Positions 2,779 through 64,000 of a stretch of 64,000 nucleotides of DNA are shown here, one piece after another (the stretch's first letter is position 1; each line of letters opens with the position of its first letter). The position numbers and the translations under genes are program-made. Origin of the DNA: Psammoneis japonica (taxonomy: Eukaryota); assembly GCA_008632985.1 (NCBI GenBank), contig QPGO01000073.1, forward strand, positions 1 through 64,000, in the 5' to 3' direction. Under the pieces are notes generated by a model. The model was not told the DNA's origin, made no database searches, and saw nothing but the letters and a program-made list of their open reading frames with translations.

Positions 2779-2779
2779 A

Positions 2780-20477: not shown

Positions 20478-20519
20478 AAAACAAGAAAAAGGCGCGCCGG
20501 CCCAACCCAAATCAAACAG

Positions 20520-20690: not shown

Positions 20691-20796
20691 GCGTGCCATT
20701 GACAGGACAGGACAAGTTCTCCGCCCACCTTGGGCACTCCGTTGGCTGGTCTCTTGCTCTTGCAGACATTGACGTTCACCAAGAAAGATCGCCAGA

Positions 20797-23700: not shown

Positions 23701-26700
23701 CCATTCCCAGATGTTGGTCGATGGCCTCTTCGTCATCGTCCTTGGGTCGTTCTCCTGGCAACAACATGTCCCCGCATTCCTCATCGGTTGGTGTCACACC
23801 ACCTTCATGTTCCACTCCGGGGTTGCCGTCGGCACTGCTTCATCGCCTTGCAAAACGAAGTTCGTGTCCTCCAATCGTGTCTCCAGTTGTTCGTTGAATT
23901 TGTCGACTTTCACATGAATGTCCGGTTGCACCATGTCAGCCTGTGTTGCGTGCTTGACTGAAGTCTTCAAAACTGTCTTCCCAGATTCCACGACAATCCA
24001 ATGGCACATGTCCGATCCGACATTGTGGGAAACACCTAGCCACTGTCCAAGTCTCCTCGGGTCATCTGTTGCATTCGGTTTGTCGGGCCTGTCCCACCAC
24101 CAGACCATGTCACAGAAACCAAAATCCAAGTGCTTGCCTGTTTCGGGTGTCTGACCAGCCACCTCTTCATGCCCAGTCCTCTTGTCGCGACCTCTTGCCA
24201 TGCGAGATGCCAGCTCCGATTCACACACAAGACCAAAATCCCACAGTCATTTTGGTGCCTTTTTCTTTGTCATGCGCAGACACCAACGCTTGGCCAGGAA
24301 CCCAATCTCTCTTTCTGCAGCATGATTCTGATTCTTGCAACCTTGTTCCGTCGTCCCAAGTTGGATCCTCATTCGACGTGCATGCTTGACAAAGTCGGCA
24401 TTTCGTCTGGTAAACTCTCCAGCTCCATCCAACATGAGATGTTCGGCGCACCCACGTCATCTGCAAAATCAACAAGAGACAGACCTGCCTCCGACCTTGT
24501 GGTCATTGGCACAACCTTTGCAAATTTGCCCTGAGCACAAACATTGGCACAAGTGTTGCCGAGCAAAGACTTCACCTCAGATGTCAACGTGTCCACAAAC
24601 CATGTCCCTTTTGGTCGCTTCCAGTGCAAGTCCAGGTGGTCGACCCCAACTCTCCTTGACATTGGTCGAGTCGCCGTCCGCACGCCACGTTGTGTGGTTG
24701 CATTGATGGTGTCCTCAGCCGTTTCCAAGCCGACGTTCCACTTTTGTGCCAGCTCTTCAGCGTCGATCTTGGAGTGACAGTCCTTGCTGCGTGGCTCCTT
24801 GACAGATCTTGCCTTCTCATCCACGTCAGACCTGTGCATGCAAGCTGCGTTGACTGAACTGATGAGCCTGTCACAGAAGGTTTGAAGGTGATGAACTGGA
24901 GACAATCAGGTTAGTTCAGTTTCAACCTCGCCCCATTGGACTGCTTGAGACTCAGCCCTGTCGCTCATCATTTCTGAAATTTGTTCCTGTTGCATGCCAG
25001 ATGTCATTGATCGGATGGCGCGCATTTCAGATTGCTCCCGTGTGCGCTGTGGCAAACCCATGTCGACTTCTGTTGGTTCCCATGCATCTCCTGTCAGTGG
25101 CATGACTGGCAAGTTCTTCTCCTCCCAATCCGTCGGAATGCGAGACTTGAAAGATGCGATTGTCCCCGTGGAATTGAAAGGGATGAAAGCCTCATCAGCT
25201 TTGACTCCAAACCCATTTCGAGCATGCAGGGGTTGTCATGTGCAGGTGTGTTGTGTGCTGCAATTGATTGGGACTCAACAGTGAATGCTGCATGTCAGTG
25301 CCAAACCACAACATTTGGTCTCCGACCAGCAAATGCTCGCGACTCGTCTCCGGATCCGTCCATGCCGTGCAACAACGCGCCACAGGGACCTGTCTAATCG
25401 GCTCACAAGAATCTAGAAACGGGTGCACTTCACAGATTTTGTTTGACAATTCCACAAGTTTCCAGTTGGCTCCAGCACAACAAGCATCCGCATGGGTGTC
25501 ACATTCATTCCTCGCCATGAAACCGGGTGTCGTCACATTCGTTGTCGCGGGCGGTCAGCGACACGCCTTTTCATCATCTTTTCTTGTAAATGAAACATTG
25601 GGTGGGGTCCAGTTAACAACACAATGAGCAACATGAATGCAAATGACATGTGCACCAGATGCGCCAATGCTCCCGCAGCTGAAACCACCCCAATCAGTCA
25701 AGCATGGCCTTGACAGGCTCCTCGACCGAAAGCACGCCCATTCCTGCCACCACAATCACGGTCAGCTCTGCGACCGCGGCCGCCGCCTTGACCTTGTTGC
25801 TGCTCTTGGCCTTGACGATCTTGGACCTGAGCTTTGGCTGCCTGCCTGTTGTCTCCGTCGCATCCACCTCTTCCTGTGGCACCTCCGTGGCCGCCGCGAC
25901 CATGCATCCTTTCACGAGCTTGAAAGACGCAATTGAGGCCTCCGTCAAAGTGCAACCTTTCCCATTCCTGGTCGGCAAAGTTCCTCACAGGATCTGACAC
26001 ATCCACTCCATTGATCATGGTTGCATGATCTCCACCTCTTCCATGTTGTCCACCGCGTCCCCCGCCATGGCCGAATCTTCCCCCACGTCCACGACCACCG
26101 TGATGGAAACCACGGCCACCGCCACCACCTCGGCTAACCTGAGAGATCTTGCATTTCGTGTGACGCCGGGCTTCCAACTGAGCACCTGCATGCAAACGAG
26201 AGACTTCGGATGAGAAACAAGCACATGCCCCCGCGAAGTCGCGAGGGTGCTGGTTGCCAATGACGGCCGCAGCCACCACAAGACGAGCATCATCCGACTT
26301 GACACCCTTTTGAAGGATCTCAACCTTCTGCCGAGCGGATGCACGTTCATCTGGGATCTCATCCAAGGCAGCAAAGGCACTGGCAAGTTTCTCCGTGAAC
26401 TTCTCAAATGCAAGTGCTGCTTCCTTCTTGCGGAACAGTGTTTCGACATTGGCCTTCGCCAGATGAACCCGCTTGCTCAATTCTCCTTCTCCATTGCAAT
26501 GATCAACCCATGCCCAGAATGCTGCGCACCCATTTTCAGTTGCATCACATGGTTCAATCCAAGCCCATCCAGCCGCATCAATCAAACATTCCTTTGACAC
26601 ACAGTGAACACGACAATTGTCCACATCAAATGCATCTCTGGCGAGTGGTGGTTGACACATGCGTTGTTCCTGAGTGTCCGCAAATGCAGCCGGTGCAGGC

Positions 26701-27742
26701 ATCCTCATCACGACATGTTTCAATGGCCTTCAGTGAGCCAAGTTTCTGCGCCAATGGATTCAAGAAGGCATCCTCGCACACGTCGAAATCATCCGTCTTG
26801 AATTTGGCAAGGTCACTGACTGTTGCAGTTGACTCCGTAAATTCCTTTTCAACATGCCTGCCGTCCCCAGCTGCTGCCATGGCTGCATTGTTAAAGTTCC
26901 CCACGACCAGCGGTTGATTCCTTTTCGTCAAATCCCTTGACCACCATGCCAACGCCTGCAAGTTCTTAATTTGAATTGTTCCCAGAATCACACGACCATC
27001 TTCATAGAAAACAAGCCTCGCCCCAGCGTTCTGGTCAACCACACCGCAAACCTGCAAAACTGCATCTGCGTCGGCCGCCGCGGCCAAAGCCGCAAGTGCC
27101 ACTGCAGGTGCCGCTGCCATCCTGTGAAAGAAATTAGAGGCAAAAACCCATGCAATGGGTTGCGATTGAGTGTGAGTGTGCACGGTGCAGGAGGCCACAC
27201 TGACCGGTGTTGTGATGATGGGTTCACTCAGCCAACCGACTTTGGGGTGATCAGTCCCGTGTCGTTTTCGTCGTGAGCACATGCTCGGGCATGCCACCCA
27301 ATGCCACAGTCGCCACACACCCATTGCCAACATGGAGACATTGACTGTCGTGCGAGTGTTTTCCATTGCAAGCTGTTTCCTTGGTTGATGTGTGCGACAC
27401 AGATCATGCGCTGCACGCAACAACCTCCTTTCGACGCCATGCGTGCGACTCAGCACATTTTCTACAGCTGCTCGTTCCATGCACACATTCACAACAAACA
27501 ACCATTCACGACGAGTTGTTCCCTTGTCCTTTTCCATCAGCGTCAATGGCTCTGACAAAGTGAACAAATCCCAATGCAGTGGCGTGAGATGACATTGTGT
27601 CTCAAGCCTGAGAGCGGCAGTGACAAACAAAGCAAACCCCACTCCGATTGTGTCATGTGAGATTGCGCGGGAAAGAACAACAGCCAAACCGTGCGCATCA
27701 GCCCCGGACCAGGGACTGACCGCTCCATTTAGATTTGCTCGC
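20797..27742 (-). mobile_element. Ty1/copia LTR retrotransposon 2 (CoDi-like), decayed
   Basis: 3' LTR 20797-20997 with PPT GAGAGGA; 5' LTR 27561-~27742 truncated; PBS-like 27548-27560; gag ~27120-25700 with RGG-rich tail; protease DTHAD; integrase; RT (KARFVAGG, HVDD); RNase H (DASHAG, NLADLFTK). Confidence 0.93.
22828..23217. mobile_element. MITE, GAC...GTC family, subtype C, inserted in copia 2 pol
   Basis: Ends GATGCATTCCAG / CTGGAGCACGTC; TSD ATGC; interrupts HKFGM|RLPKS. Confidence 0.92.
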
Positions 27743-28744
27743 AGACACATTCCCCACAGGCGCAAGATCTGGATCTGACAATTCTTTGGCTGACAAAGAA
27801 GACTCCATTTGTTCTGCAGAGATGGATGGCACACGGAATCCTCTTCGGAGGTGATGCCCTTCACGGGGGATGACAAGTTTTCCGATGATCTTTTTGATGA
27901 CAGCGGCCATTGCAACAACACTGACAAAAGCAACGATGATGCCAAAAGCACCTGTGTTTCCTCTGGAAAATCTGCTCATGCCAAGAAATGTGGCGCATCA
28001 TGTCCTTTTTTCCACTCATTCCTCATCTGCCGCGCGCTGTTTTCTGATCCGTTTTTGTTCAATTTTGACAGCATTGAAGACTGGCAAAGATGCAGCTGCC
28101 CTCACAAGTGGCAATGGGGAACACCACATTGCCAAAAGTTGTTTCTGCAGGACAACAGAAATGCAGCACAGGAGGAAGCTTTTGGCTCCTGGCCCCGACT
28201 TCCTGGTGCTGCCTCATTTGTGGCACAATCCTGAGAAGGGATTGTGTCACTTTTTTGAGCAATGCCTTGCCATCAATGACGTTGCAGGCCTCTCTCTTGG
28301 CTGCAACTGATTCATCAGGGAGCACTCTGGCCCCACTCATTTGCACAAGGATGATTTGTCCCATGTCGTCATCCAGAAAAAAATTTGTCAGATGATGGTT
28401 GTCCATGGGAGCCTGTGTCATTGAGATCCAAGGGCAACCTGATGCAGGATGCATTGGTGTTTCCTGCGTTGGTTGTGCTGAATCTTTGGTTGTCCCTTGC
28501 AACAACCCCAACATTCAACATTTGTCACATCTTGGATGTTCATGGGTGTGCACATCTGGCCATTGTGGCAAGCTGTCAAACCAGATTCAACCATTTTTTC
28601 CACATGGTCGCCAAGCACTCGGATGACTTTTCAGGAGTGCGCCAGAGTTGGCTGCTCTGACACATTTCTGTCATGCCATCAATTTGTTTGCCTCAGCAAC
28701 TGGCAACATTGGAGTCACCCCACACATGATGAACCCAAGCGGGG

Positions 28745-36000: not shown

Positions 36001-39000
36001 TGCACTGTGCTCGAAGAACGAGTGCAAACGAAAGTAGAACAGTGTACGAAAAGTGGAAATCATGAGACCAGATTTTGCTCTGTGATTTTTGGTTTCTCCG
36101 AATGAGTTCTCAATGGCCTGAAGCTTCTGCACTGCTTCTGCAGACAAAAGGCCTTTCGGAGAACACAATCGTGACAACAGACAGTCCGAGTGCGATTGCT
36201 TTTGACACATGAGATGTCAGCATCGTCTGTCAATCGCATTTGCGATTTTCGACTTCCGACCAACTCTGTGTGATCGTTCTGTCCTTCGCACGCATCCACG
36301 ACTGTGGCACGATTGACATGCAAACAACACACAATCATGTGTGTGTGTGTGACAGTCGCATGCTGCACTCGCCTCCCTAATTGCACATTAGAGTCATTTG
36401 TCAAGTGGATTGTTCGACGGATGTTGACAGTGTCAATGATGTCTCCACGTTCACTGCACTGTGCCATTGGCAATGACTGTTGTCGTTTTGTACAGGCCAT
36501 GTGGGGCCGTTCCAATTTCCGAATGTCTTGTGAGAGTGACATCGTTTGTTTCTCACTTTGTGTGTGTGTGTGTGTGGCATTGCGTCGAGTGTTCTCGTTG
36601 ACGTTTTTTGTTGACATGAACACAAGGACCAACTGTCCTGCAGTGTTTTTCATGACATCGATTGCACCTGGCATTGTGCCCAGCACTCAATGCACGCTCT
36701 TTTAACCATTGTGGCATTCACTTCACTTGTGGAGTTCATGTGGTTCTGGCTGGCTAACTTTGTGTGTGCCACACTGCTCTGCTGCACTTCCACGTGTTGC
36801 AAGCAATTGACGATGGTCAAGGACATTTTCCAACCATTTTGTCTTGACAATCCTGGGATGGTTGTGGACTCCTTTGTGGATTTCTTTGTTGCTTCAACCA
36901 TCTTTCCTTTGGATTTTGATCGTCATTTGGACATTTCTTTTTGACATGCCGGCAACATTTTGTCATTCCGAAGGCACTGCTTTTGTGCACTGTTCGGACA
37001 AATGTCCATTTTTGTGTTTTGTTTCTGAATCTTTGGCACATCTCGTGTGACGTCATTTATGTCTTGCCTCGTACATCGTACATTGCAATCGTGCGGGTGC
37101 TGTGAGATTGTCTTTTGCCAATGTGAAGCAGGTGCGTGCAATGTGCGCCAATCTGTCACTGATTTTTTCTTTAACCGTCCCTGAGTGAGGCGATTTTTTC
37201 CTTGTGACATGAGCATTTTTGATCTCGCTCGCCTCCACGAAAAGTGTTCGTATGACATGTCGCGTCCGACAATTTGGAGGAAATGTCTTTGTCCCGTTTT
37301 GTTCAGCATCGAGAACTTTGCAGTTCAACGGAAAGACATTGTCGCAGGATTTTGGTGGGACCTTTTCAGCCAACTCTTCTGTGCTGAGGTTTTCCACAGG
37401 TTCTATTTTTTTGCAGCAAGTCGGCTGATCGCTCTTGCGACGACGTTTGCCTTGCCCTCGATGTGTTTTATTTTGGGGCTAGAATTCTGCACTCTAAGTC
37501 GTCAACGCATGACTCTGTCCATTGTGTGTTGTGAACCGCATGCACAATGATCTGTTGGCCAAACAGCACATTCCAGGAATTGTTGAGTGTTTCCACTGTG
37601 GACAGAAGTTCTTTTTCCGTTGTGACTTGAACATTGCAATGCCGTGTTTGATGGTGACATGGTTTTTGATGTGATGCGCTCCACATTTTCGGAGACTTTT
37701 CGTTCTGCACTTGTCCTTTTGCCGTTTGACCTTTGTTGAGGTGGATTTGGCTGGAAATGTGCAGGAGATCATTGAGACTGCATGTCTTTGTGGTGGCAAC
37801 ATGTGTCGACAAGCTGTCATAATTTTCTTTGCGTTTTGCTCAATGTTGCGATTGCCGGAATCGCCTCCATTTTCTTTGCAATCGGATGTGTGCCGTTGCG
37901 CATGGAAGTCTTGACAACATTTTTCAAGTCAAGCAGTGAAGGACTTTTGTTTGTTGACCTTCAAAGCGACTGTTCCAGTCGTGTGAATGCCATTTCAAGT
38001 TTTTCTTGTGCAGGTGACATTTTGAAGTTACTTTCTGTCAGGTACAAACGTTCATTCATGGTCGTTCTGACAACTTTAAACCTGTCATGAGTTCGCTCAT
38101 GTGTTGCACGAAAATGTCTGGGGCTCTGCAGATTCTCATTGGAAGTCCACAGCACTCAATTTCCCCCACGGCAACATTCTGAGGTGAGCACAACGTGTGC
38201 TTTTTTTGATTTTACATTGTGGTGTTCCATGTTTGAATCGCAACTTCATTTTTAAATCTTCAATCTTTCACAATTGGCCAAATTCCTTTCAAATGGACGC
38301 CTCCAAAGACTGTGACAGGAGAAGGTTCTCGCACGTCGCGTAATCGCGTCAGATTTTTCACGGTGAGATCCACTGGTTCTTCCCATTCATTTGTCCAACG
38401 AACTTTTTCAAAAGGATTTTAAACCTCACAAGAAGGAGACTGAGTGGTTCATCTTCTTTTGGTTCAGATGCATTGCTGCAGCTGTCACTTGATTAGAGTC
38501 GACGGCGTGACAATGTGAGTCGAGAACCATCGGTCTCGTTGTTAACTCTGTTCACTGTGTGATGTTTTTCAATGTGATCGGCACTCAGCTGGAACATTTT
38601 TGCATCGAAGAGTGCATCAACATTCTTCACAGGGTAATTGCTTCACCCCCATTTGATTTCTTCAATTGCGCAGTCTAGTGTGATTGCAAGACTGGACATC
38701 AATTCGCGTCCCATGATCATGTCATTCGACCTTGAAGGGCATTTGGTGTCATTGACACACACTGTTTGAATGTCAGCAAGTCTTAAATTCGCGCAGTGAG
38801 AACTGAATTCGGTGTTTGCTGTCAGTCGTAAAGAGCTCACCCTTGGTTTCCCAAGTTTTTTGGTGGCGGACATCTTGGTTCTCAACTTTCGCACGATTTT
38901 GCGTAAAATCATGGGCTGACGATGTTCTTCATCGAGAGAACACGCAGAAGCTTGTTTTTTGCTTTTCTCAGAGAAGTGATCACATAGACAGCGAGGGTGG

Positions 39001-40636
39001 GACTCGCACAACACACTGTGATGCTTTTTCTGGGTTTCCAGACGTCCTGCAACGCGTTGTGCTCCTTGAGCGGTGTGAATTTTTGATCGGACTCGATCGG
39101 GTCAATTTTTCTAAATTGACAGTTTTGTTCGTCAAGCATTTTAGAGTCTTAATTTTTGCTCTTGTTTTTACGTTCCTTTGTCGAGGAACTCGCTTCAATT
39201 GTTTTTGTGAACTGCCTGGTTCATGGTTCAGTTCAATTCCTCTTTCACAGAGGCATTTCTGCTCTCGTCACGTTCGCGTGCGATTGCCATTTAGAGCGTC
39301 GTATTTTTGGGTCTCTTTTAGAGCCACCCTTGCACTCTTTCGCCAACTCATTTTCAGAATGGCTTCAATCCGTGATGTGGGCATTCTTCTTTCAAAGATT
39401 GGACCTTTTGTTCACTTTGGATTGTGGTGGCACCACACAGGAGACCATTTTTGGAACCAAAATTGGAGCCTTTTTGATTGTGGAATCAACTGCACTGTCA
39501 GAGCCCGGGTTGATGTGTTTTTTTTGTCACAGACGTCCTTGCCGACCTCTGGACGACTCAAACCTCAATCAGCTCGTCAAGGGTGTGATCCAGCAGTTCA
39601 ATGTTTTGGACAGTGGGCTGATGCTGCCATCCTTGCGGTGCGAGTGACAGCTGACAAATCAGCGCTCGGTTTCCCGCTAGATTCGACTTAGAATCCATCT
39701 GAGGGTCGTGTGGACTCTCATCGTTGACCTCTTGGGTCTGTCAGAGGCTTTCTTGCTGTTGAGCGGCTCTGGTTTCTTCAGGTCGTCTCGAAAATAATTT
39801 CCCTGATTCTGAAGTGCATTTCCTCGGAGGACATGAGTTGTGAGACGCTTGAGGCACTTTCCAACGATTCCCTCTTGCTCCTTGGACTCGAGGATCATCG
39901 ACTCGGTCTCAAAAAACTCCCCAACAGTCTCTCCTTGCATGGCAGACGCATTTCTCGGATCTGATCGACTCGGAACTTGCACTCTCTGCAACCATGACTT
40001 GGTGTAGATTTTTTGACAATGCAGTGCACTTGAGAGCCCTTGATCCTTGGGTGCTTGGAGCAGACCGCATTGGAGCGAATCCTCTTGTTTGGCAGACGAA
40101 AAACAGCGTTCCATCTTGAGGCACTGCTCGGCTTGAGCTTCTTCCGCTCGGAAATCGATTCCAGCAGAACTGATGCGATTCGTTCCTGTTCACAGAAGAA
40201 TTTGCAAAGGCACATTAGTTGAAATTTTCATTTTCCGTGCTTTTTACCTTCTGTGGTGTGTGTGCACAATGCACCATGCTCAAAGAACGAGTGCAAACGA
40301 AAGCAGAACAGTGCACGAAAAGTGGAAATTATGAGATTAGATTTTGCTCTGTGATTTTTGGTTTCTCCGAATGAGTTCTCAATGGCCTAAAGCTTCTGCA
40401 CTGCTTCTACAGACAAAAGGCCTTTCGGAGAATGCAATTGTGACAACAGATGGTCCGAGTGCGATTGCTTTTGACACACAAGATGTCAGCATCGTCTGTC
40501 GATCGTATTTGCGATTTTCGACTTCCGATCAACTCTGTGTGATCGTTCTGTCCTTCGCACGCATCCACGACTGTGGCACGATTGACATGTGAACAACATG
40601 TGATCATGTGCATGCACACAACAGTCGCACACTGCA
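36001..40636 (-). mobile_element. Ty3/gypsy LTR retrotransposon, degenerate and internally shortened
   Basis: 367-bp LTRs at 36001-36367 and 40270-40636; TSD CTTC; PPT GGAGGCGAG; protease-like DMIMGRELM (~38710), RT remnant LPM...PDIF (~38130) and RNase H TTEKELLSTVETL (~37600) in gypsy order. Confidence 0.9.
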
Positions 40637-41666
40637 CTTCTTTGGACAAGCAGTGTTGGCACTGCTGCAAGTTTTGTCCATGACGATGGCAATTCATGCA
40701 GTTCCTTTCACATGGGACAAGTGAATTGATCAGTTCCTGAGTTGTCCCAAAGTCTGTGTGGTGGCAGACAATGTTCTTTTCCAACAAAAGCATGTGCTGC
40801 GGGTCCTCTGGCAACAAAGTCTGAACATGCATCAAATCTGCAAGTGTGCAATCAACTTCAATGGGGTTTGGAAACCTCGCCTTGATTGTCAAACAACAAC
40901 TCTTGTCATTTGTTGCATTGACAAACAGCAAGCACGGAACACCTGTTGTTTGTGTTGTTGTTTGTGCAGAAGTCAAATGCATCACTGTCAGCCAACCAAT
41001 TGGTGTGTGCTGCACCAACTGCAATGAAAATTGCTGCTTGTTGTGATCTTGCTCAAATCTTGTTAAGAACAAGATTGTCAGTTTTTTTGTGCAGACAATT
41101 GCCAAATCATTGATTGATTCTTGACAAGAGATGAACAACATGACAAGATTTGTCAATTGTTCATGAATGAACAACAATCAACAAAGCCACCTGTGCAACT
41201 AAAACTTGGTGCAAAACTGTCCTGAGCCAATGATGCAAGCAATGTGTCACCCAAAAATGCATCTGCACCTTGTGTCAATGTTGGTGCAGCAGCTGACAAC
41301 AGAAGAGCAGCCATGGACAAAAGCAGTCAGGGTGAGACTGCTGCCTTTTTGCACTTTTTAGATGACAATCTTGACGTTCTGAGCCCAAACAATGGCAATG
41401 TGTCCCTTGGTTTGTTGTCACCCTCACCACATTGAGAGAGGAAAAAACAACCACAAGAAGCTGCTTGCCCCACCAAGCAATGTTCATCTGTTTGAAGAAG
41501 GTGTCAACAACACCTCTGACATTCGGAGTTTGGAAAGTCTGCCAAAAATCACCGCTTCCCAACAAAAGGATGGATCCAAAACCAAGGAACTGTTTGGCTG
41601 TTTCTTGGATGAACCCCTTCAACCATTCATCCTGAAACAGCAGAGCACTGTGAGGAGACTGTCACC

Positions 41667-52589: not shown

Positions 52590-53802
52590 GACAGTGACAA
52601 CCACCACATTGCAGCCTCTGATTTTCAAGCACAGTGTGTTGTTTGACATGGACATGCACGCTCCACTGAAAATTCCAACTGTGTTGCTCTCCTTTGCAAA
52701 AGTGGTTGTGCAAATTCAGGCAGGCCGTCCTGCCATCCTGACTGCATTGAGAGCCTTCTTGACACAAGCTCAGCACAAATGCTCCCATGTGATTGATGGC
52801 ATGTTGTCCCAAACCTTGATGTTGTTGGCGACAAAGGTCTCCTCAGGCTGAGGATTGTCTCTGGTGGTGAAATGTGCTGCTTGTGCAATCATCTTGGCAC
52901 AGGCATTGGTGCAGTTGGTGGTGTCATCATCTGCTTCTGGTGGCGCCACTGCCTGGTTCTCGTGGATGGCACACACAAGCAGGATGTGGGTTTCCCGCGG
53001 CATGCCTGAGAGTGCTCTTTGAGCAACTCCGTTGTCTTGAGCCAGCCCTTCTTGATGAGAGCAGGTGGGGTCTCTGGACTTTTGCAGGCAGGCTTGGCTG
53101 TCCACAGGTGGTTGAGACCTCTGACGCAGTTCAAAGCAATCTCAGTTGCACACAGCATGTGCGAGATGTGCTCGTGGTGACGAGCGGCAAAAGCTGCAAG
53201 CTTGAGGTTCGTCTCAGCTTGCAGTGATGTGGCCATGCATGGATTGGCATCGCCATCTGCGTTGTCCCCTCCTGGGTGATGTGTGACCTTGCTTGAGGCC
53301 CAGACCTTGTGGTTGTCAAGGTGGCACAATTCCTTGATGGGAGTCCTTGATTCTCTGTTCAGCAACAAGTGCCTCGGCTGCTGGGTTGGTGAAGCCCAGC
53401 CTGGCTGCAGCAGGTGGCTCCCACAGCTGCAAGGTTCATCACCATTGTCAATGGACACAAGTGACAAAAGGACTCCTGTTCTTACAAATTGTGTGGATGT
53501 CACACAAAAAGTGAGTGAAGTGTGCGATCTTTGCACCACTCATTTGCAATTGCATGTGCTCCGTCAGCTCATTTGATCAACCCAAAGACAGCATTCTGTG
53601 TTTTGCTCATGCAAGGTCCAGTGTCTGCGCAAGACAGGGACACAAGCAGCTTCTTGTGTTTGGCACACACAATCATGTGCCAATGCGCACTCGTCATGAA
53701 TGACACATTCATTCTCCCTGATCTGCTTGACCATCACCAGCGAGGCATCACTTGACACAACACACAGGTGACCACACTGCATTTGCATGTTCAGATCGGA
53801 TG

Positions 53803-53854
<52 letters not shown>

Positions 53855-54320
53855 GCTCACTTGGCAATTTCAAATTGCTCAAGCGTTTGCCTCCAAGACA
53901 ATGTGGGAATGGAGAAATGACATCTCAAATCCATCGAGACTGCGCTCTGTGTCTGCGTGAGTGTGCTTGTCAGACACATCACAATGGTCGACACTGCAGT
54001 TGTCAATGAGTTTTAAATTCAGACTGGTTTTGGGAGCAGCGTGCTCATCAAGCACGGACACCGCAGATTTTTTCTGGTCATCCCTGACTTTCATGGAACA
54101 TTCTCCGGGGCGTTGCGCGGCACATTCGCGAGCAAGGGCATCAGAAGGTTCGTCGTTTCTTGTGACGATTGCTCTGACAAAGTGAGTGAAACACCCTGTG
54201 GTCGCGTGCTCCAGGGGTTAGACTAAAAGAAAAGCTGTAACATCGTGACACTATTTCCTAAAAGTGAGAGTTATCCTGAAACTCCAACTTGGCGCACTGT
54301 CGCCAAAGATAAAGCACATA
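52590..54320 (-). mobile_element. 5' fragment of a third copia-like element (LTR, PBS, UTR, gag)
   Basis: Same PBS-like GCTCTGACAAAG at 54171-54182 followed by TG; gag-like frames SLQAETNLKLAAF and FVANNIKVWD...DGRTACLNLHNHF; right boundary uncertain. Confidence 0.6.
53801..53853. repeat. (TG)n microsatellite, about 26 units
   Basis: Directly visible, with one CG interruption. Confidence 0.95.
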
Positions 54321-54465
54321 AAACCATTATTTAGAGTTCGCGCTTCCGTCCGTCCGCACAAACCACAATTTTTCCCGACCACGCAGGGATCGAGAATCGA
54401 GAAATCATTTCATCTTCTTTGCGTCGAAGCCTGGACTGTCTACGTTTTCCTCGAAATGTTGAACA

Positions 54466-56003
54466 ATGAAAAAACCCTTGAATCCCTCGGAAAAAGCGGC
54501 GCTTGACGCCGAGGTGGTTATTGTGGGGGCTGGAATCAGTGGCGTGTGTGCTGCCATTGACTTGTTGCGACAGGGTTGCACCTCGTTCATCGTACTGGAG
54601 GCCCACCCAGATACACCGGGTGGCACATGGCGACAGAATACGTATCCCGGAGTGGCAGTGGATATCATGGTGGTCTCTTATTGCTTTTCTTTCGAGACAG
54701 ATTATCCCTGGTCCCAACAGTATGCCCCCGGAGCTGAAATTTTGTCTTACATTCGTCATTGCATTACAAAGTACGGCATCGACAAGTACATTCGCTACGG
54801 ATCACGTGTCCAAAGTTGCAAATTGCATCCAAATGAAAACCAGTGGGCGATACACCTTTCCAATGGCGGCGTTCTTCACTCTCGACATGTAATATCGGCC
54901 ACTGGGATATTAGCCACACCCAAGTTCCCGTTGATTGCTGGAATGGAAGAGTTTCAGGGCAAGACGATGCACACGGCCCATTGGGATCATGGCTACGATC
55001 TCCGAGGCAAACGCGTCGGCATTGTCGGCACAGGTGCCTCTTCGGTCCAGGTTTGCCCCTCCATTGCGCCCATAGTGGAACATTTGTACGTGTTTCAACG
55101 GACACCCATCTGGGTGTGCCCCGGACCCAACTGGAGTCTCCACCCAAACAGTCCTCAGCGCCGCTTTTGGTTTTGCAGAAAGATTTTGTGGTTCGTGAAC
55201 GAACTGGCGTTTGAAGTTATAACTTTTGTCATTACCAACTATAAATACCTCGGCTGGTTAGTCCGATTGGTCCAGCAACTGCTACGATTGTACATGAAAT
55301 TTCAAGTCAGAGACAAAGCGGTTGCTGAAAAGTTAATTCCTAGTTACACGCTCGGATGTAAGCGACCTACTGTCAACAACGAATACCTTCCAATGTTCAA
55401 CCGGGACAACGTGTCGCTCGTCACACACGAGATCAGCAAAGTTTGCACCGATGGAATCGTCACAATGGACAACAACAAACTACACAAGCTAGATGTTATC
55501 ATCTGGGCCACCGGTTTCCGAACCACCGAAAAACACAACATGCCCAGTTTCAAAGTGTTCGGAAGGGACAATGTTGAACTTGGACAGTTCTGGGAAAAGA
55601 ACAGGAAACAAGCATATGCTGGTGTTGCCGTACCGGGCTTTCCAAATTTCTTCTTGACGGCTGGTCCTTACTCGGGAGGTTTCAATTGGTACCCATGGTA
55701 GAAGCACACGTGTCTCTCATTAGTCACTGTATCAAGCAATGCACGGGTGACATTACAGCGGTGGAAGTGAAACCGAAAGCACATCAGCACTACATGCAGT
55801 ATATGTGGTCTCGAGCTAAGGGATGCGTTTGGGTCAGCACGTCATGCGCTGGATCGAACAGCTATTATCTCGATGGTCATGGAGACGCGTCTTTACCGAT
55901 TCCGCAGACTCCGTGGTGGAGGTACCGTTGGATCGACCGAGGACCGGCTAAGGACGGGTTTTTTTACTCGTCTTGTTCTGGCACTAGCACTACTTCACGC
56001 TAA
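54466..56003 (+). CDS. Flavin-containing / Baeyer-Villiger-type monooxygenase, intronless, with a 1-nt frameshift near 55695
   Basis: GAGISG, GGTW, BVMO fingerprint FQGKTMHTAHWD, GTGASS, GCKR, WATGF, FPNFF; C-terminus continues in frame 55686..56003 (MVEAH...SNSYYLD). Confidence 0.9.
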
Positions 56004-56514
56004 CTGCAGTCAACTGAGACCGGTTAATCAGACCCAAGGAGAACTAAACCTAAACTCAGATGTCATAATTTTTCGTATAGTACATACTACACCACGCGGA
56101 GTAGAGAAAACACGTACAGTGCGAGTTATTTTACCGTTAGGGAAGCGGAAAACAAACATTATAGACGAGCCTCGCCTAATTGCCAAGCACTAGAGCTTGC
56201 TCAATTTCAGTGGTTTTGATTTTCTATCTGCTGAAGATATAACTCACGAGGATGGAAATGAACGGCAAGCTCGTAGCACAACGCAATCACCAATACTCTT
56301 CGCTCCATTTAAGTGAATCCTTGTCTACTGTATTCTTGTCAAAAGAATTATTGACATTTAGAGTGCTAGTAATTGGGATCCTTATGTCTACTTGTGCAAA
56401 TGAGCTGGGAATGAAACTTCTTCACATTGTGATGGTTCTGTTCGGTAGGTGGAGTCGTTCTCACCAAGGATGTTCTAGAAAGCCGATGAGGAGTAGCTTC
56501 TTGAATCTGTTCAT

Positions 56515-57618
56515 TTAAGCAAGCACCCACGGCTTAAGGGCTGCGCGACCGTTCTCCTGGATGTCAGCTGAGTCCGTGTATGTCTCGACGGCCTTGGCAA
56601 CTGCAGTGAATCCTCCAGCCTTTGCAACCTCTGGCACATACTCAGTCCAGTTACAGATATTGGCAAAGGCATAGCATCCACGAGACTGAATCTCCTCCGA
56701 ATCGGCATATGCCTGCATCGCGGTGGCAATAGTGATGAGTCCTCCACAGGCGACAACGCGTTCTGCGTTGTCCTTATTCTCGTGGATAAGGTTACCGAGT
56801 CCGGCAATGCCATACTCTTGCACAAGCTCGTCGCCCTTGTGCTCATTCATGCTGGCGACAGTACTCTCGACGCCGCCAAGTTCACCCTTCATGTTGCGGG
56901 CATCTGCGTCCATAGAGAGCGTCTTGAGCGCGCGGCAAGCCTGTCTCTGAATGCCAACGTTGGCTCGGAACTTCTTCAGTTTGCGAATGATGGTGAGTGG
57001 GCCACCAATCTGATAAACTTTGTTCCGGTTTTGTTCCTCAGCGCACAAATCGGCAAGGTCGCTCAAACCCTTCTCCACCTTTTCTTCCTCGCCGCTAGGC
57101 AAATCTTCCATCATGATTTCAATGATTCGGGCCTTTCCGTCTTGCTGAGGTGGAGTAGCAGTTTCTTCCTCTTGCACAGGCTCAGCTTCATCTGCAGGCT
57201 CGGATTCTAGTTCGGCTTCTGTGGGCTCAGCCGCTTCCGTCGGTTCAGCTTCTTCAGCTTCCACTGGCGTTGCCTCTTCCGTTGGCTCGGCTTCAGCTGG
57301 CTCAGCCTCTTCCGTCGGTTCAGCAACTTCGGGAGAAGCTTCTTCCGTTGGCTCGGCTTCTTCGGGAGTAGGCTCCTCAGCGGGTTCGAGTGTAGGCTCT
57401 TCGACAGCCTCCACTTGTTCTTCTGCAGGAGCTTCTGTCTCTTCCGTAGGTTCGGCATCCTCGGTTTCGGATGGCTCTTCTACTTCAACAACTTCGGTCC
57501 CGTCGTCATTCTCAGCAACGGTCTCGACAATAACTTCCTCCTTGGTCACTGGAGTAATTTCACTTGTGACGGAGCCGCTGTCGCACACAACAGTTTCTTC
57601 AGGTTCGAGGGGAGACAT
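56515..57618 (-). CDS. Armadillo-repeat protein with an acidic E/A/P/T repeat N-terminus
   Basis: Intact ORF with normal TpA and Tyr; EEAEPT repeats then ARM-like helices (IQRQACRAL, VQEYGIAGLGNL, IQSRGCYAFANI); first ATG at 57618. Confidence 0.85.
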   Translation of the reverse strand: MSPLEPEETVVCDSGSVTSEITPVTKEEVIVETVAENDDGTEVVEVEEPSETEDAEPTEETEAPAEEQVEAVEEPTLEPAEEPTPEEAEPTEEASPEVAEPTEEAEPAEAEPTEEATPVEAEEAEPTEAAEPTEAELESEPADEAEPVQEEETATPPQQDGKARIIEIMMEDLPSGEEEKVEKGLSDLADLCAEEQNRNKVYQIGGPLTIIRKLKKFRANVGIQRQACRALKTLSMDADARNMKGELGGVESTVASMNEHKGDELVQEYGIAGLGNLIHENKDNAERVVACGGLITIATAMQAYADSEEIQSRGCYAFANICNWTEYVPEVAKAGGFTAVAKAVETYTDSADIQENGRAALKPWVLA

Positions 57619-57739
57619 GGTGTTTTGGTAACGAGTAGTGGAACAGCCGATGATCGAGATGCAACGGATCGAATTGTGAGGCAAGAAAAGGGGTGAGAGA
57701 TGATGAGAGATGACGGAAGGAAGATTTTTGAAATTTTGA

Positions 57740-57867
57740 TGACGTCGACCGTATCTGACGTTGCGATCATTTCACTTCATCACATACATAGAAAGATAAA
57801 TGACATACTAACTGTAGCAGCGGTGCTGACGTCGATCTCGCTTTCTTCGTTCGATAGTCTGACGTCA
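57740..57867. promoter_or_regulatory. Cluster of four TGACGT (CRE/bZIP-type) motifs upstream of the ARM gene
   Basis: TGACGT at 57740, 57756, 57827 and 57860; the last is the full palindrome TGACGTCA. Confidence 0.4.
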
Positions 57868-58377
57868 CAAGTTTTCTCAAAGGAAATTCGCGCGATTGCG
57901 TCCCATCACGCATCACGCGGGAAATGACGAACAAGCAGCAACAGCAACACGCCAAAAATGCGAGGAGTCGCAATCGCCATGACAGATGATGATGGTCATG
58001 ACAGTCCACATGCGCACGACACACGAAAGCATGGAGCAGCCTTGTCCCCTTCCGAATGACCGCAACCCATTCAGAGCACACACTCGTGGTGGACACCAGC
58101 GCAAGCACCTGAAAGCCCGCCCCCAGCAGCTTCAAACCACTCTCAGCTTGGCCTTTCTTTGCAGTTTTTCAAGAGCCTGTCCCAGGTGAAAGTCGTTTCA
58201 AGAACCCCTGCATGGGCAAGTTCTCAAAGCTTTTGAAAAGCAGCTGCTGAGGAGAGCTGTCTGCCTGTGCCCCCCCATTTGCTCCTTTGTGGGCAACAGC
58301 ACAAACAAACACGTGCCTTTGAACCCAGCACTTGAGACACTTTTGCAGGCACTGAGAAACAGTGACAAGTTTTGCCA

Positions 58378-58794
58378 GATGTGTTCCAGCCCCAAGTGAC
58401 ACACAAAATGACAACCCGTTTTGAGCGTGCCAATCATGCGCGTCTCATGCACACAGTGTTTTCACAACAAAAGCCAGTGTGGATGGCACTCAAGTCCTCA
58501 CAAAATGCTGTGCATCATGAATTCCCTTCGCAGACTCAAGACTGGTTGCATGACAGCACCTTTTGCACATCAAGTCCCTTGCTGGCAGAGTGCCTGCTGC
58601 TGCTGCGGAAAAATGTCGCAAGCAGTTTTGTTTTGTGTTGACACCCAAACATTGAATCTGTGCAAATCTTCAACATTTTTGCCAAAAATCATCAACAAAA
58701 AACACAGACAGCACAAAGCAATGATGTTGCAATGCTGGTGCAAGTCTTGTTGGCATTGCACAATTTGGCTCATGTGCAGCCAGATGAGCACATT
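58378..58794. mobile_element. MITE, GAC...GTC family, subtype K, heavily decayed
   Basis: Both ends align with 7697-8250; TSD pair GCCA / GCTG. Confidence 0.7.
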
Positions 58795-59095
58795 GCTGGC
58801 ATTGTCAAAGCTGTTGCAAACAAATTTTCAGACAGACCCTGTCAAAGCCAAAGAAGGGTGGCAGGTTGCTGTTGGATGTCAGTGCAAACAAGGTGCAGAA
58901 AGCAAGCCTGAGCAAAAACAGGTGGACAAAAAAGCTTTGTTTTGTTCCTTGTGGGTTGAAAGCTGGTGACAAGCATGTTGCGCACAAAGAAAATTGTTGC
59001 TGGATGACCTTGCCAGGTCCATCCAATCAGAAAAAATTCTTGGGTTCATCTGTTTTGGAGGCACTGCTTCAAGAGCCTTTGTGCAAGTGCAGCCC

Positions 59096-59467
59096 GACGT
59101 GCTCTGGCTCTGGGTGGGACCTTGCACTGCTGCACACTGTGATGCCAAGAGTTTTTTTTGTCACGTCGCATGTCACACATGCAGATGGCTGCGTGTGACA
59201 TTCCACAAAATTGTTTCATGCTCTGCATTTTGCAAAGCCAAAGGCTTTCTGTTTTCAACATTTGTGAGAGCGAAAATGTGCCAGCCAGGTGCGTTCTTTG
59301 ATGTCTGTGGAGAGCGCACCCGGGCAAACTGTCAATGATGTGCTTCAAGTGTGAAGGACGAGATGCATTCGTAAAATTGCCTCCTGTTCCATTGGTGATC
59401 ATTCACATTTTCAAATTCTGCTGGCCCAATGTCGCACGGAGTCCCACCTGGGTCTCTGGAGCCCGTC
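59096..59467. mobile_element. MITE, GAC...GTC family, subtype F
   Basis: Ends GACGTGCTCTGG / CTGGAGCCCGTC; TSD GCCC. Confidence 0.85.
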
Positions 59468-60014
59468 GCCCTTGCCACGCGGTGGAGAGTTGCTGTGCAA
59501 ACACCAACAGAATGCTGCTGCAGGTGATGGAAATGCTAAAAACAAAGAGCAAGATTGGCTGACTGCATCACCAAAAATGTTGTGGCACTCGGGCAAATGT
59601 TCGAGATTTGTGTCCGCAGGCATTTGTTCGGGTGACGCCACAGGACTGAGCTGCGCAAGATTTTTGATTGCGCTGTTGTGAGCACCCAACTGGCATGCAG
59701 TGGTGCTGTTGTGCTTGGTAATCTGGATCAACTCTGTTCACACTAGGGCTCTCTACTTTGGCTAGAGCAGCTCCAGTGACCAGCTGGAGAGAAGAGCCGC
59801 GACTCGCAGCTCATGCGCACCTGCCGCGGCACCACCCACAGCATTCAGACCTTCGTCCGTTTCTCCCTCGCGCGACACTCACGCATTCGTATCTTTTTTT
59901 TCGGATGAGAACTCCCTCCAAAAGAACGCATCACACGCATCACATCACACATCATCACATCATCAACCTCTCATTCTTGTGAAGGTGTCAATCGAAAATA
60001 TACAGAAGAAGATC

Positions 60015-63000
60015 ATGTGGGGGACATCACCAAAGTCGAAGGATGGCGGGCCAAACGAAGATACGCCACTTCTAGCTGAGAGTAGTAGTGCTGGCTCGAC
60101 TGGTAAGAAGAACTGGATCAAACTCCGTGGTGCCACCAAGGCCGGAATAGCTTTTCGGCGTACGGCTCGTACCCGTGCAGCACGTCGAGCTACCATTGCT
60201 CGTAGTCACGCTCGTGAAAGCGTACGCGGATCCGTTGCGTTTCCTTTCTTTGCCTCTGCAGAAGATGATGATGTAGAGACGGGAGATGAGGAGGGTGGGA
60301 GCATCAAGTCTTCTTCTCGTACAACGAAGGATCTGATTGAACCGTCAGAGGCCTTGGTGCCACTGACACAGGGAGGTCGATCTGCCGCTCTCGTAAAGAG
60401 CATTCCGGCCTTTACTCCATACAGACGCATGGCTAGGCATAGATCCTTTCATCTCTTTTGGACCAATGAGTTTAGGCATTGGTGGAAGGCGAGTTCTTAT
60501 CTTATGAAATGTGAATTGATATGGATCTTGCTATGTGATATGTGATTCTTACACTCTCCTCGCAGTCGTCGCGTCTATTGGTCCGTCTCGGGGGACTCGA
60601 TACCCATGCTCGAGATCCCATAGTGTGGTACAAGATGACCAACATAAACCCGATTCGATTCAAATCTTTGAAAAAGATGTACAAGTTGGTGAAGCGGTTG
60701 GGTCAGGGAGGTCCTATGCGCTGGTTTCTAGATCGTGTGCACCCTTTTACTCGAAGTCTGCGTATTTTGGTTGCAGCGTGGCGTTGGATTGAGTCTGCTC
60801 GTAAGTTTTGATTCGCTCATATCTTGAGTCAATAATTTTCGTTTCAATGGCCTAATTCGCTTGTACATTGATGCGACATGCTTTATTCTACCTTTCTCTT
60901 CCAAACTCCAGCCTGCAGGAGGCTGGAAGTCGGAATCGAAGAAGCAATGGTACGTCTGCATTTGTGGGTTGTGTTTCCAATCAATGATTCTGGTTCCCAT
61001 TCAAAATTTCTCAATCATTTGTATCTCGATGCTGTACGCTTTGTTTCGTAACAGGCCTTTATCGGCAATCGAGTGTCGCGTATGATTGCTCGACTCGTCG
61101 TGGATTCCGCCGTTACCATGGGCATTATCCCCTCGTCGCATTATCTCTGGAAGCGGCAGCACTTTCCCATTGAGTGGTGGTTCCCAGCCGTGTGCTGCAT
61201 CATTATGGGTATTTTCCGTGCCATTTCGCCCTATGGCGCCTCGTTTCAAGGATCTCGCGTGGGACGTGTTCTTACACGCTCCTTCTTCAAAAACGCGTAC
61301 CACCGCTGGCTTCCGATCCAACGCATTCAAGACCTTAACTTGGAATGCGACGATTGCCAAGAAGGTGATGAAGTCTCCGAGAACGCCGATTTGGCGAGGC
61401 TTGGAAAGAAGGTTGCCAAGGCTCTTGGCAAAGCCCAGAAGCTTGGGCTTGATGGCTTTGAAGGACAGAACGAAGAGCTCGCCAACGAGGGATTTTATCA
61501 AGTGGGCTCCGGCTCGGGTGGCTATGCAGTCTACGAGTGCCACAGGAAGGTTTCCGATAACGTTGATGAAGACAGCCACACCATCTTGCTTCATGTCACG
61601 CCTTATGGGCCATCGTTGTTGGACGTTATGCCTCGCTATCTCGTGCTGGAGTTTGAGGATTCACAAGATCGCCGTGGTGTATGGTCGGAAAAACTCGCAT
61701 CTCTCCGACGCCAAGGTCCTTCGGTGGTGGAGGGCTATGCTTATCAGGGTGCCTTTTTTAGCCCTCATCACTTTGCAGAGATGAAAGAAACATATGACAA
61801 ACAGCTTCTAGCCTACGATATGGCATGCAAGGCCATGGCAAAGAAAGAGTCTCAAAGAGCTGGTCCTCCGACCGATCTTCCGACTCTAAAGGAGTTTCTT
61901 GCTGACGGGAAGATCCCGCGGAAGAAGAAGAAGAATATGCGGGAATACCGCATCATGCAGAAGAACGTGGGCAAGGTGGCTCGGAAGCTCAAATCCATGA
62001 TGTCCACAGGCAAGGATGGATGTACGGCGCCGAATGGTGTAATCCTGTACTTCGAGGGTCTCGATTGTTCGGGTAAATCAAGCACCGGCGGTTTGATTCA
62101 ACAAGCACTCGCAGATGCAGGGTTTGAAGTTTCAATGGAGCAGTACAATAGGCCGCCCACGGAAGAGCAGAAGCGACACGAATGGATGTGGCGATTTGCA
62201 TTACCCAAGACGGAAGCGGGGAGTGACGAAGATGGCGATGACTGTACCGGTCATCGCCACCGAGCTGTTGTTTGGGACCGCGGCCCCGCTGGTGACTTTG
62301 TCTACGGCGCTCTGACGACGGCACCGGAATCGGTAAAGCGTGAGCGATGTAAGTCGGACTCATTCCTATCTATCGCGATGCAACTGTGCCCTTGGGGTAT
62401 TAAAGACTCGCTTTCTTACCAACACCCCGCCTCTCTTTGCACACTACACAGACCGCGAGTTCATGGAGTTCGACGCGGAATGTTTCAGGAACAACATTCT
62501 TTTCATCAAGTTGATGTTTGTAACAAACCGGGACTCCATTGCCAGCACCCTAGGAAAGCGTCTCGCGCAGAGAATGATGGTCAAGGATCTTCGCACGTGG
62601 TTAAAGGCTAGTCACGGTGGCGAATTGGCCAACACTGACGTTCCCATGGAGGGTCTGGACTTTATCGACATGCACATTGATCCAACCGATGTACGTACGA
62701 TTGTTACTCCTGTCAATGCCAATATTTTGTATTTTGCTGCGTGTCTGATATTGCTGACTTGATTTTCCTACCGTTTCGTTTGAAAGTTTGTTGCATTCAA
62801 CATGTACCAGAAAAATCTTCACAAGTTCGTCAACTTTGCGCTCAATACAGACACGGAGTCCAACCCGTGGATTGTGGTGAATACTAGCGATCGTTTCTCG
62901 GCGCGGAAGCAACTGCTACGAGTGTTTGAAGCCCAGCTCAATGCTTACGCAAGTGCTAAACGGGCAGGAATGAGTAGATGCTTTGGCCTGCTTCCGCCCG

Positions 63001-63251
63001 CGGCGGAGGAGTCTGGTACGGTGACTCACGAAACTCCTGGTATCACGGAAGCAGAAATGATTGAGAGAAAGATCAAGAAGGGTCTGTCGATGGGCACGGT
63101 TCTAGCGCTCACAGGTCTCTTGCTTCTTGTGTTTTACTATTGTGAGAATACAGTCTTCTTTGAAAACGCGACGAGATTCTTTGAACACCTCAACGGGCCT
63201 TCTGATACCGAGTCGCAAGATAGCACGCCCGGGTTGGAAGTGGATGGATAA
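60015..63251 (+). CDS. Polyphosphate kinase 2 (PPK2) family protein with hydrophobic segments; six exons
   Basis: Exons 60015-60488, 60566-60800, 60912-60949, 61055-62348, 62452-62690 and 62787-63251 splice in frame; PPK2 motifs FEGLDCSGKS, PPTEEQKRHEWMWRF, WDRG; hydrophobic VLALTGLLLLVFYY near the C-terminus. Confidence 0.82.
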
Positions 63252-63836
63252 GATTTCTTTGGGTGGTTTATGCGTTGCTTGCTTTGTTTGAGGGGAAGTC
63301 AATCCCATGATCCCCCCTCTGTGTTTACCAAGCATTTGGAGTGATTTTTGTTTTGAAATTTGTGGTGGCTCATGCTCTGTACGAAGGAAACGGTTGCCTC
63401 ATAGCGGCCCCTTTTGTAATGTACACAGCAAGAAATCTCTAAGCCTCGGTTGTGTAGTGTAATGTCTGTACCAGTGTGTTTATAATGAAACGGTGATGTT
63501 CTTTAATCGGCACGCTCCCTCTCTCTAGCCCCAGTAGTAGAGGTGATTAAGCTGCAACACTATTGCAGCGCCGCCGCGACTGCTCCCCACACCTACACGA
63601 TTCTTGAAATGCCGTCCTACCTATCATCATTCTTCAGAATACAGCGACACTATTAAGGTGCGATAGTTGCTTTTTTAAAAATACGGCACCATCTCTAGAG
63701 AGAGAGGTGAGTTAGATTCAAAGGTATTTCACTATCTCCTCGACTGCTCTCTAGAAAAGCTCGTAGGCCACAAACACCACGCCAATGATATCTTTTGAAA
63801 TCTTTGAAACAACACATGTTGATTTACTCCTGTTTC

Positions 63837-64000
63837 TTAGCAACAATCACCAGCGCCAGTGGAAATTGTTGACGATTGTTGATGCCGCAAGTCAATTGGA
63901 TCTTGCTCTGGTGGAATAAATAACTGTGGCTGCATTCGCTTCCTCTTTTCCTCCTGTACTAGCGCAAGACTTGCCGCTTGATAAAACGCTTCTTCCACGT
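63837..64000 (-). CDS. 3' end of a Rab GTPase (Rab7-like), partial
   Basis: My translation VEEAFYQAASLALVQEE...IDL...GAGDCC-stop: post-G5 VEEAF helix and terminal CC prenylation motif; not in the ORF track. Confidence 0.7.
   Translation of the reverse strand, partial: VEEAFYQAASLALVQEEKRKRMQPQLFIPPEQDPIDLRHQQSSTISTGAGDCC

Follow-up and report, generated by a model that had tools for sequence, protein, structure and literature searches.

In the 64,000-nucleotide stretch of the Psammoneis japonica contig QPGO01000073.1 analyzed here (the window), the dinucleotide TpA is almost abolished across an intergenic island of 1.86 kb and across a far larger block that fills the first 54 kb, whereas the genes beside both regions retain it (Table 1). 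This pattern most likely records a hypermutation that acts on the DNA itself, converts TpA to TpG or CpA, is directed at silenced mobile DNA and has been driven to saturation in the island. A local, directed process had been proposed for the island in the initial annotation of this sequence, and the proposal is supported by the fate of tyrosine codons in copia retrotransposon remnants, by the divergence of a repeat pair resembling long terminal repeats (the LTR-like pair) and by sites at which CA in one copy faces TG in another. The island is a small outlier of the block, and it is the block that forms the main body of the phenomenon. The window probably represents a further case, here saturated and visible at fine scale, of the TpA-specific hypermutation of integrated viral DNA described in Bigelowiella natans (Mettrop et al., bioRxiv 10.64898/2026.01.13.699255).

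An exact dinucleotide count reproduces the two TAs of the initial annotation, at 59372 and 59537, as the only ones in 57870–59715. The nearest TAs outside the island lie at 57855 and 59719, and the flanking genic DNA (54000–57855 and 59719–64000) carries 3.83 TA per 100 bp. At this density 70.6 TAs would be expected in the 1846-bp interval, and the Poisson probability of finding two or fewer is 5.5 × 10−28. The observed-to-expected ratios (O/E) in the island are 0.02 for TA, 1.72 for CA, 1.87 for TG and 0.48 for CG, and the excess is strand-symmetric, with 207 CA and 206 TG in total. Measured against genic O/E values, the island is short of 69 TA and 56 CG and holds 65 CA and 87 TG too many, an approximate balance of 125 losses against 152 gains. 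The G+C content is 0.493 both within the island and in the flanks, unmoved because TA and CG conversions have opposite effects on it that cancel, and the mononucleotide content is likewise equal inside and out. Therefore, the depletion is a dinucleotide effect rather than a compositional domain, which agrees with the earlier view that regional composition is not its cause.

The borders of the island are as abrupt as the initial annotation had described them. At 100-bp resolution, bin 57800 holds 4 TA and bin 57900 none, while CA+TG rises from 11 to 22 across the same step; on the right, the TA count returns from 0 to 4 at bin 59700. Maximum-likelihood change points are placed at 57856 on the left (2-log-unit support 57816–57912) and at 59719 on the right (59663–59999), such that the edges resolve to about ±50 bp and at most to ~100 bp. 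Six non-coding stretches beside genes, 2249 bp in total, contain 111 TAs (2.4–6.8 per 100 bp). Therefore, at least within a few hundred bases of genes, a lack of TA is not inherent in the non-coding DNA of the window, and coding selection is not what keeps TA there.

A fundamental question is in which direction the dinucleotides changed, and the block supplies material to answer it. It retains 206 TAs in 53.9 kb, and its only Pfam matches, three in number and all to RVT_2, were obtained among 100 of its 104 stop-to-stop open reading frames (ORFs) of at least 140 amino acids, the other four being frames that overlap satellite arrays. Three translated copia reverse-transcriptase remnants were aligned with 40 intact homologues, and columns with at least 80% tyrosine were scored. 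Tyrosine is encoded by TAY, cysteine by TGY and histidine by CAY. The 37 conserved-tyrosine cells of the remnants read cysteine 21 times, histidine eight times, other residues seven times and tyrosine once, whereas other conserved residues with at least 30 cells are kept in 59–87% of them. Two of the three copies carry HVDD and CMDD in place of the catalytic YVDD motif. The predominance of cysteine over histidine means that A-to-G is the commoner change on the coding strand of these elements.

These data bear on the explanation that the depletion is intrinsic, either because the families concerned were always poor in TA or because TA is selected against. Every copy seen in the window is indeed TA-poor. 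However, the window copies contain only 0–0.4% tyrosine, whereas 149 intact copia relatives have a median of 3.6% and none lies below 2.6%, and for the same reason no hypermutated copia copy is found among these 149 retrieved homologues. The closest named relative, from the diatom Fragilaria crotonensis, belongs to the cluster of protein P0127, which is 65% identical to the remnant; another homologue, P0213, shows 57% identity. Moreover, sister copies of a transposon family described below keep TA at positions where others have TG or CA, the consensus of loose contig ends from other genomic copies contains TA, and sites discordant between CA and TG require independent mutation. An intrinsic origin is for these reasons very improbable.

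Direct evidence for timing is provided by the LTR-like pair (Table 1). Its members differ only by transitions, and 34 of the 36 mismatches are swaps among TA, TG, CA and CG, divided mainly into 12 CA-versus-TG, seven TA-versus-CA/TG and three CG-versus-CA/TG sites; CG is kept in both members at 18 sites and TA at none. The 12 CA-versus-TG sites must descend from TA because CpG has hardly changed in this pair. The class counts yield an estimated conversion of about 0.87 per TA and about 0.07 per CpG. In this younger element, TA loss exceeds CpG decay in completeness by a factor of roughly 25. An older pair, the tandem 2.7-kb copia duplication at 12171–14853 and 14850–17522, is 84.7% identical, and its differences are mostly swaps derived from CpG or TpA. 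It contains 74 CA/TG double swaps, compared with 12 in a purine-pyrimidine (R-Y) control, and 108 CG-versus-CA/TG sites, from which it follows that CpG decay is still under way there.

The third line of evidence comes from a miniature inverted-repeat transposable element (MITE) within the island, at 59096–59467. This element has the hallmarks of a MITE: it is short and non-coding, has inverted ends and a target duplication, occurs in many copies and gives no Pfam match. Its inverted ends are common to nine further full copies in the window, where a search with the end motif returned 20 matches versus 0.01 expected, and eight of the ten copies are flanked by a perfect 4-bp target duplication. 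In one of the two imperfect duplications, TG on one side faces TA on the other. The island copy reads TG (seven times) or CA (six times) at 13 of the 18 positions where sister copies keep TA. Across the family, 21 dinucleotide columns have TA in at least one of nine copies, and their 142 non-TA cells include 50 CA and 38 TG; the 18 positions scored in the island copy are those of these columns in which it has letters. The process therefore hits a DNA transposon as well as retrotransposons, and both the TG and the CA outcome occur. Taken together, the copia tyrosines, the repeat pair and the MITE family show that the elements lost TA to TG or CA once they had arrived, and that each copy did so independently.

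Could the conversion have taken place in RNA? One alternative is adenosine-to-inosine editing of retrotransposon transcripts, by an ADAR-like or tRNA-deaminase-derived enzyme, that reverse transcription would then fix in DNA. Such enzymes prefer U before the edited A, which fits the TpA context, and copia elements with their excess of A-to-G (21 cysteine) over T-to-C (8 histidine) on the coding strand are among the targets. The preference for U is also stated in the Discussion of the B. natans preprint (bioRxiv 10.64898/2026.01.13.699255). However, the changes are not confined to elements that pass through RNA before integration: MITEs, which move as DNA, are equally depleted, one of their target duplications is affected, and about 1 kb of non-repeat DNA in the island has lost its TA as well. 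The members of the LTR-like pair changed independently, and TG and CA are nearly equal in the island. RNA-level editing is accordingly a highly improbable source of the pattern, and hypermutation of DNA in place accounts for it far more readily.

The TAs that remain in the block suggest that the preference of the process extends beyond the dinucleotide. Their expected contexts were calculated from all positions at which CA or TG would yield a new TA, a source model that is assumed. Against this expectation, TTAA is 3.5-fold over-represented among the 206 sites and CTAA/TTAG 2.1-fold, while ATAN and NTAT reach only 0.09–0.38 of it, and 145 of the 206 are of the TAA/TTA type compared with an expected fraction of 0.49. 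These values suggest that ATA and TAT are easily converted and that TTAA is spared.

A bias of this kind is also what a sequence-specific modifier would give, and the serious rival to an editing process is that TA loss is the by-product of a silencing base modification on TpA, for example adenine N6 modification or oxidized thymine, that decays as methylated CpG does. In its favor, silencing marks classically leave CpG decay behind them, TA and CpG are both symmetric steps, and the two losses share domains. However, with the conversion rates estimated in the younger element, such a modification would have to decay in a far more mutagenic way than 5-methylcytosine. The TA-free zone of the island is also wider than both the recognizable repeats and the CpG-depleted core, its leftmost 245 bp having no TA and a CpG O/E of 1.10. 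Therefore, TA loss is faster or further-reaching than CpG depletion and does not ride on it. Lastly, the bursts of mutation in B. natans struck only 11 of 15 lines (bioRxiv 10.64898/2026.01.13.699255), a pattern that we read as induced activity. We regard decay of a modified TpA as unlikely, though the most credible of the alternatives; that TA has been lost so much more completely than CpG speaks for a more active process.

A final technical alternative is that modified bases at TpA are systematically miscalled during sequencing or assembly, and the platform used for the assembly and for the public sequencing run compared with it is not on record. However, contigs from this run, which may derive from the assembly's own sample, match the unique parts of the island with 0–1 differences over 1426, 296 and 467 bases. 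Therefore, the island is not a one-off assembly error. Moreover, whether TG or CA results depends on the site and varies from copy to copy, and changes in coding sequence follow the genetic code. An artefact is the least probable of the explanations considered. In the same contigs, the unique parts of the island show no polymorphism among TA, TG and CA; the only differences from the window, at 58080 and 58607, are both CG versus CA and run in opposite directions.

Table 1 Features of the window (positions on the forward strand; TSD, target-site duplication)
Feature	Position	Strand	Description
TA-poor block	1–54218	.	TA O/E 0.06, CA 1.69, TG 1.66, CG 0.52; ends 247 bp upstream of monooxygenase ATG 54466
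Copia retrotransposon remnants	11469–25506 (11469–18258 and 21116–25506)	-	RVT_2 match; mapped by tblastn
Direct repeat pair, LTR-like	36001–36369 and 40270–40638	+	369 bp; 4.27 kb apart; 36 differences, all transitions
Left neighbor, armadillo-repeat protein gene	56515–57618	-	First ATG 57618; TA-normal; upstream 57619–57855 (237 bp) has 9 TA
TA-free island	57856–59718	.	1863 bp; 2 TA versus ~71 expected; CA/TG excess; CpG halved; G+C unchanged
Left part of island	57856–58100	.	0 TA; CpG O/E 1.10; no contig pile-up, no copy in window
Island core	58101–59095	.	0 TA; CpG O/E 0.20; CA+TG O/E 1.83; partial contig pile-up, single-copy level in the intervening bins
Lone motif like MITE terminal inverted repeat	58383–58402	+	3 mismatches; without partner end
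Complete MITE	59096–59467	+	372 bp; terminal inverted repeats; 1 TA; TSD GCCC at 59092–59095 and 59468–59471
Residual TA	59372–59373	.	TAAA context
Right part of island	59468–59718	.	1 TA; CpG O/E 0.55; no contig pile-up
Residual TA	59537–59538	.	TAAA context
Right neighbor ORF, no family match	59719–60545	+	First ATG 60015; upstream 59719–60014 with 7 TA; gene status and orientation inferred from ORF length

What does the island consist of? The initial annotation had assigned to it two MITEs and a decayed ORF. One MITE is complete, with terminal inverted repeats and a GCCC target duplication; the second is reduced to the lone motif at 58383–58402, for which no partner end was found on either side and which is at best a fragment. 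The ORF does not stand, since the longest stop-to-stop frame of 185 amino acids falls below the mean of 190 in dinucleotide-preserving shuffles, 135 of 300 of which reach 185. Frames in the island are long because TAA and TAG stops are impossible without TA. A Pfam scan of 11 island ORFs found no family at E ≤ 1, Rfam returns no match at E ≤ 0.1 over 57000–60500, and the island has no similarity to five flanking ORF products or to four intact copia polyproteins. The idea that it is a decayed copy of a neighboring gene was rejected because its sequence has no similarity to the flanking ORF products.

Contigs of the public run were placed on the region at 80% likeness or more, and 634 of them land on 57000–60500. 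Their word depth, which is a sum and not a copy number and serves here to mark where many other contigs are similar, rises from ~56 to 6,245–26,853 over 59106–59456 in the MITE and to 480–1,276 over 58287–58520, 58638–58754 and 58989–59105, and is 56–77 elsewhere. About 1 kb of the island (57856–58286, 58521–58637, 58755–58988 and 59457–59718) is free of contig pile-up at this threshold, is not repeated elsewhere in the window and lacks protein homology, although decayed repeats may escape such searches. This anonymous DNA is equally TA-free. The statement of the initial annotation that the process follows repeats thus holds insofar as a MITE is present and TA-poor, but it does not extend to the kilobase without a detectable repeat. 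The loss of TA there reflects either a spread beyond repeats, an action on a chromatin domain or repeats decayed past recognition. The anonymous kilobase could be a decayed transposon because two copies that lose all TA and much CpG could drop below 80% identity. No inverted or direct repeat was found at the outer edges of the island beyond the scores of shuffled sequence, and the island as a whole lacks terminal repeats. A suggestion from contig joints that other copies skip 58424–58662 was dropped, as it rests on sides of 20–28 letters only.

DNA of normal TA content is limited to 54219–57855 and 59719–64000. These stretches carry a flavin monooxygenase-like gene, the minus-strand armadillo-repeat gene, the ORF without family match and a PPK2-like ORF, and a search with the armadillo-repeat protein found no homologue at E ≤ 1e-5; a protein atlas offered no informative taxonomy for the PPK2-like ORF. 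The change points lie 247 bp (54219 to 54466), 238 bp (57856 to 57618) and 296 bp (59719 to 60015) from the first ATG of the adjacent gene. Such similar distances fit a promoter-proximal chromatin boundary better than three unrelated insertion sites. The monooxygenase, of the Baeyer-Villiger or CzcO-like type and encoded at 54466–56003, has best matches of 58–60% identity, those with names being bacterial and no closer eukaryotic match being listed, which suggests a bacterial origin of the gene. It is TA-normal though it abuts the TA-poor block, and foreign ancestry alone is therefore not the trigger.

We propose that transposon-type DNA makes up the island, which lies between two apparently divergent genes and is composed of an intact MITE, a related fragment and ~1 kb that is no longer recognizable. 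In this model, the palindromic TA step would undergo A:T-to-G:C transitions by hypermutation, with TpG or CpA as the product, until saturation, and a slower decay of CpG to TpG or CpA would have acted in the island core. The agent may be an enzyme that deaminates adenine to hypoxanthine in TpA on DNA, as has been proposed for B. natans. Its target would be a silenced chromatin domain seeded by transposon insertions and not sequence repeats as such, and its barrier would be promoter-proximal active chromatin, as all three edges in the window lie 238–296 bp upstream of a start codon. Any content encoded in such DNA is scrambled beyond recovery: no tyrosine codon is exempt, and neither are TAA and TAG stop codons or motifs resembling TATA.

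Several points weigh against this interpretation. For about half of the island, no repeat and no homology to a transposon or protein could be detected, and a transposon origin is unproven there. The promoter-boundary idea draws on three edges, which are too few to prove it, and the start codon on the right is placed from an ORF. That the LTR-like pair represents the LTRs of one element, identical at insertion, is our inference, and the flanks of the two members differ. The signature is seen here as a footprint and could be ancient, with the process extinct. Finally, since TA reads identically on both strands, the sequence does not discriminate between deamination of adenine and a chemistry on the thymine side.

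The nearest known system is that of B. natans. In mutation-accumulation lines of this species, a 186-kb giant-virus insert and a 25-kb virophage insert accounted for 231 of the 302 nuclear point mutations that arose; 230 of the 231 were A-to-G or T-to-C, all of them on TpA, and 11 of 15 lines were affected (bioRxiv 10.64898/2026.01.13.699255). The same work identified 124 clusters of 1-kb windows that are poor in TpA and rich in CpA+TpG, found TpA-poor coding sequences to be enriched for reverse-transcriptase and DDE domains, and named an ADAT2-like candidate enzyme (bioRxiv 10.64898/2026.01.13.699255). The preprint describes the same substitution, the same targeting of mobile or foreign DNA with ordinary genes left normal, the same type of clusters and a common link to reverse transcriptases. 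Both defining features recur in the window: A:T-to-G:C transitions are confined to TpA, as judged from 29 of 37 tyrosine cells, 36 transitions among 36 differences and a mass balance that roughly closes, and copia, MITE and satellite DNA is TA-poor while four gene regions are normal, with ~1 kb of unrecognized origin.

Differences are also apparent. In B. natans, a Rho TpA of 0.45 in the giant-virus region attests to a mild depletion that was caught together with ongoing mutation, whereas O/E values here are 0.02–0.06 and only the footprint is seen. The targets there are viral inserts; in the window, copia elements, MITEs, satellites and the 1.86-kb patch are hit. Accompanying decay of CpG, the sparing of TTAA and edges ~240–300 bp upstream of start codons are features of the window that go unreported in the preprint. 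A full-text literature search found no report, besides the preprint, of TpA loss in transposons of diatoms or of any other organism. The window also differs in gene structure, since its genes are long uninterrupted ORFs and those of B. natans are intron-rich. As the copia relatives, too, come from a diatom, the window probably represents a lineage other than that of B. natans, although transposons can pass from one lineage to another.

A second comparison is offered by fungal repeat-induced point mutation (RIP), which in ascomycetes converts CpA to TpA and so creates TA and lowers G+C. Like RIP, the process recorded here is an irreversible, in-place hypermutation of mobile or repeated DNA by transitions, with a sharp dinucleotide context and sharp edges, and unique DNA beside repeats can be affected. 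It is nonetheless the chemical mirror image, as it consumes TA, produces CA and TG and leaves G+C static; the C:G-to-T:A changes of RIP would raise TpA and lower G+C, opposite to the TA O/E of 0.02 and unchanged G+C of the island. A trigger by duplication, as in RIP, would suit the highly repeated MITE, yet a search of the run contigs and the window at a threshold of 80% likeness found no copy of ~1 kb of the island, and decayed repeats may escape such a search.

ADAR hyper-editing and the A-to-I editing of fungal mRNA resemble the window in changing A to G with T or U before the edited base. These systems act on RNA, whereas the changes seen here extend to DNA transposons, to both strands and to repeat pairs whose members diverged independently. 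Decay of methylated CpG, for its part, co-occurs with TA loss (CpG O/E 0.20 in the core and 0.52 in the block) and has the same TG and CA products, but it cannot remove TA, is much slower here and covers a narrower zone. Methylation is the presumed cause of the CpG decay in the window.

To our knowledge, in-place hypermutation of mobile DNA was known before the 2026 preprint essentially from fungal RIP. It is possible, though we place it somewhat below an even chance, that the window documents a saturating, domain-targeted DNA-editing defense that erases TpA in algae unrelated to Bigelowiella, the probable carrier of this second case being a diatom. Such a system would mirror RIP, work more than tenfold faster than methyl-CpG decay, prefer ATA and TAT, spare TTAA and be halted ~240–300 bp upstream of the start codons of active genes. 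If so, irreversible editing of mobile DNA would be a widespread eukaryotic strategy and not a fungal specialty or the curiosity of one species. The window shows the end state of TpA hypermutation, tens of kilobases and a 1.86-kb intergenic patch with TA almost abolished, whereas the long-term depletion in B. natans is mild. It adds facts that can be tested, namely an action on DNA after insertion, DNA transposons among the targets, a rate far above that of CpG decay, a context-biased residue and a gene-proximal limit resolved to ~100 bp. Small islands with unique flanks are natural sites at which to find the determinants of the boundary, be they chromatin marks, small RNAs or transcription, and to catch new mutations. 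For annotation, caution is advised, as TA-free DNA yields long spurious ORFs that lack tyrosine and are rich in cysteine and histidine.

Some further observations concern the individual elements. The MITE family (nine copies in 4836–45423 and the one at 59096–59467) has members of ~370–490 bp with inverted repeats of ~25 bp and varied 4-bp duplications, and the CpGs of its terminal GACGCG have decayed to TG or CA to an extent that differs among copies. A metagenome scan with the end motif gave 21 loci, single 20-mer matches mostly in G+C-rich contigs, and no related MITE; one locus alone, L009, extends beyond the 20-mer, to 31–34 bases. In the copia region at 11001–28000, which is coded on the minus strand, a modest strand bias is present, with 1793 CA and 1531 TG on the plus strand. 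The element at 36001–40638 has an intermediate TA O/E of 0.10–0.20 and a near-normal CpG of 0.74–0.91 and looks like a younger insertion; within its repeats, a (TG)n tract at 36342–36351 or 40611–40620 aligns with a mixed CA/TG run in the other copy, as if both came from an ancestral (TA)n. The block also contains TA-free arrays of a 17-bp satellite at 147–2759, 7157–7696 and 8251–8672, with higher-order periods of 54, 71 and 196 bp. Near its right end, translation of the ORFs over 53564–54009 gives extended tracts of His-Thr and Cys-Val. These point to a (CA)n/(TG)n microsatellite, which may likewise derive from (TA)n.

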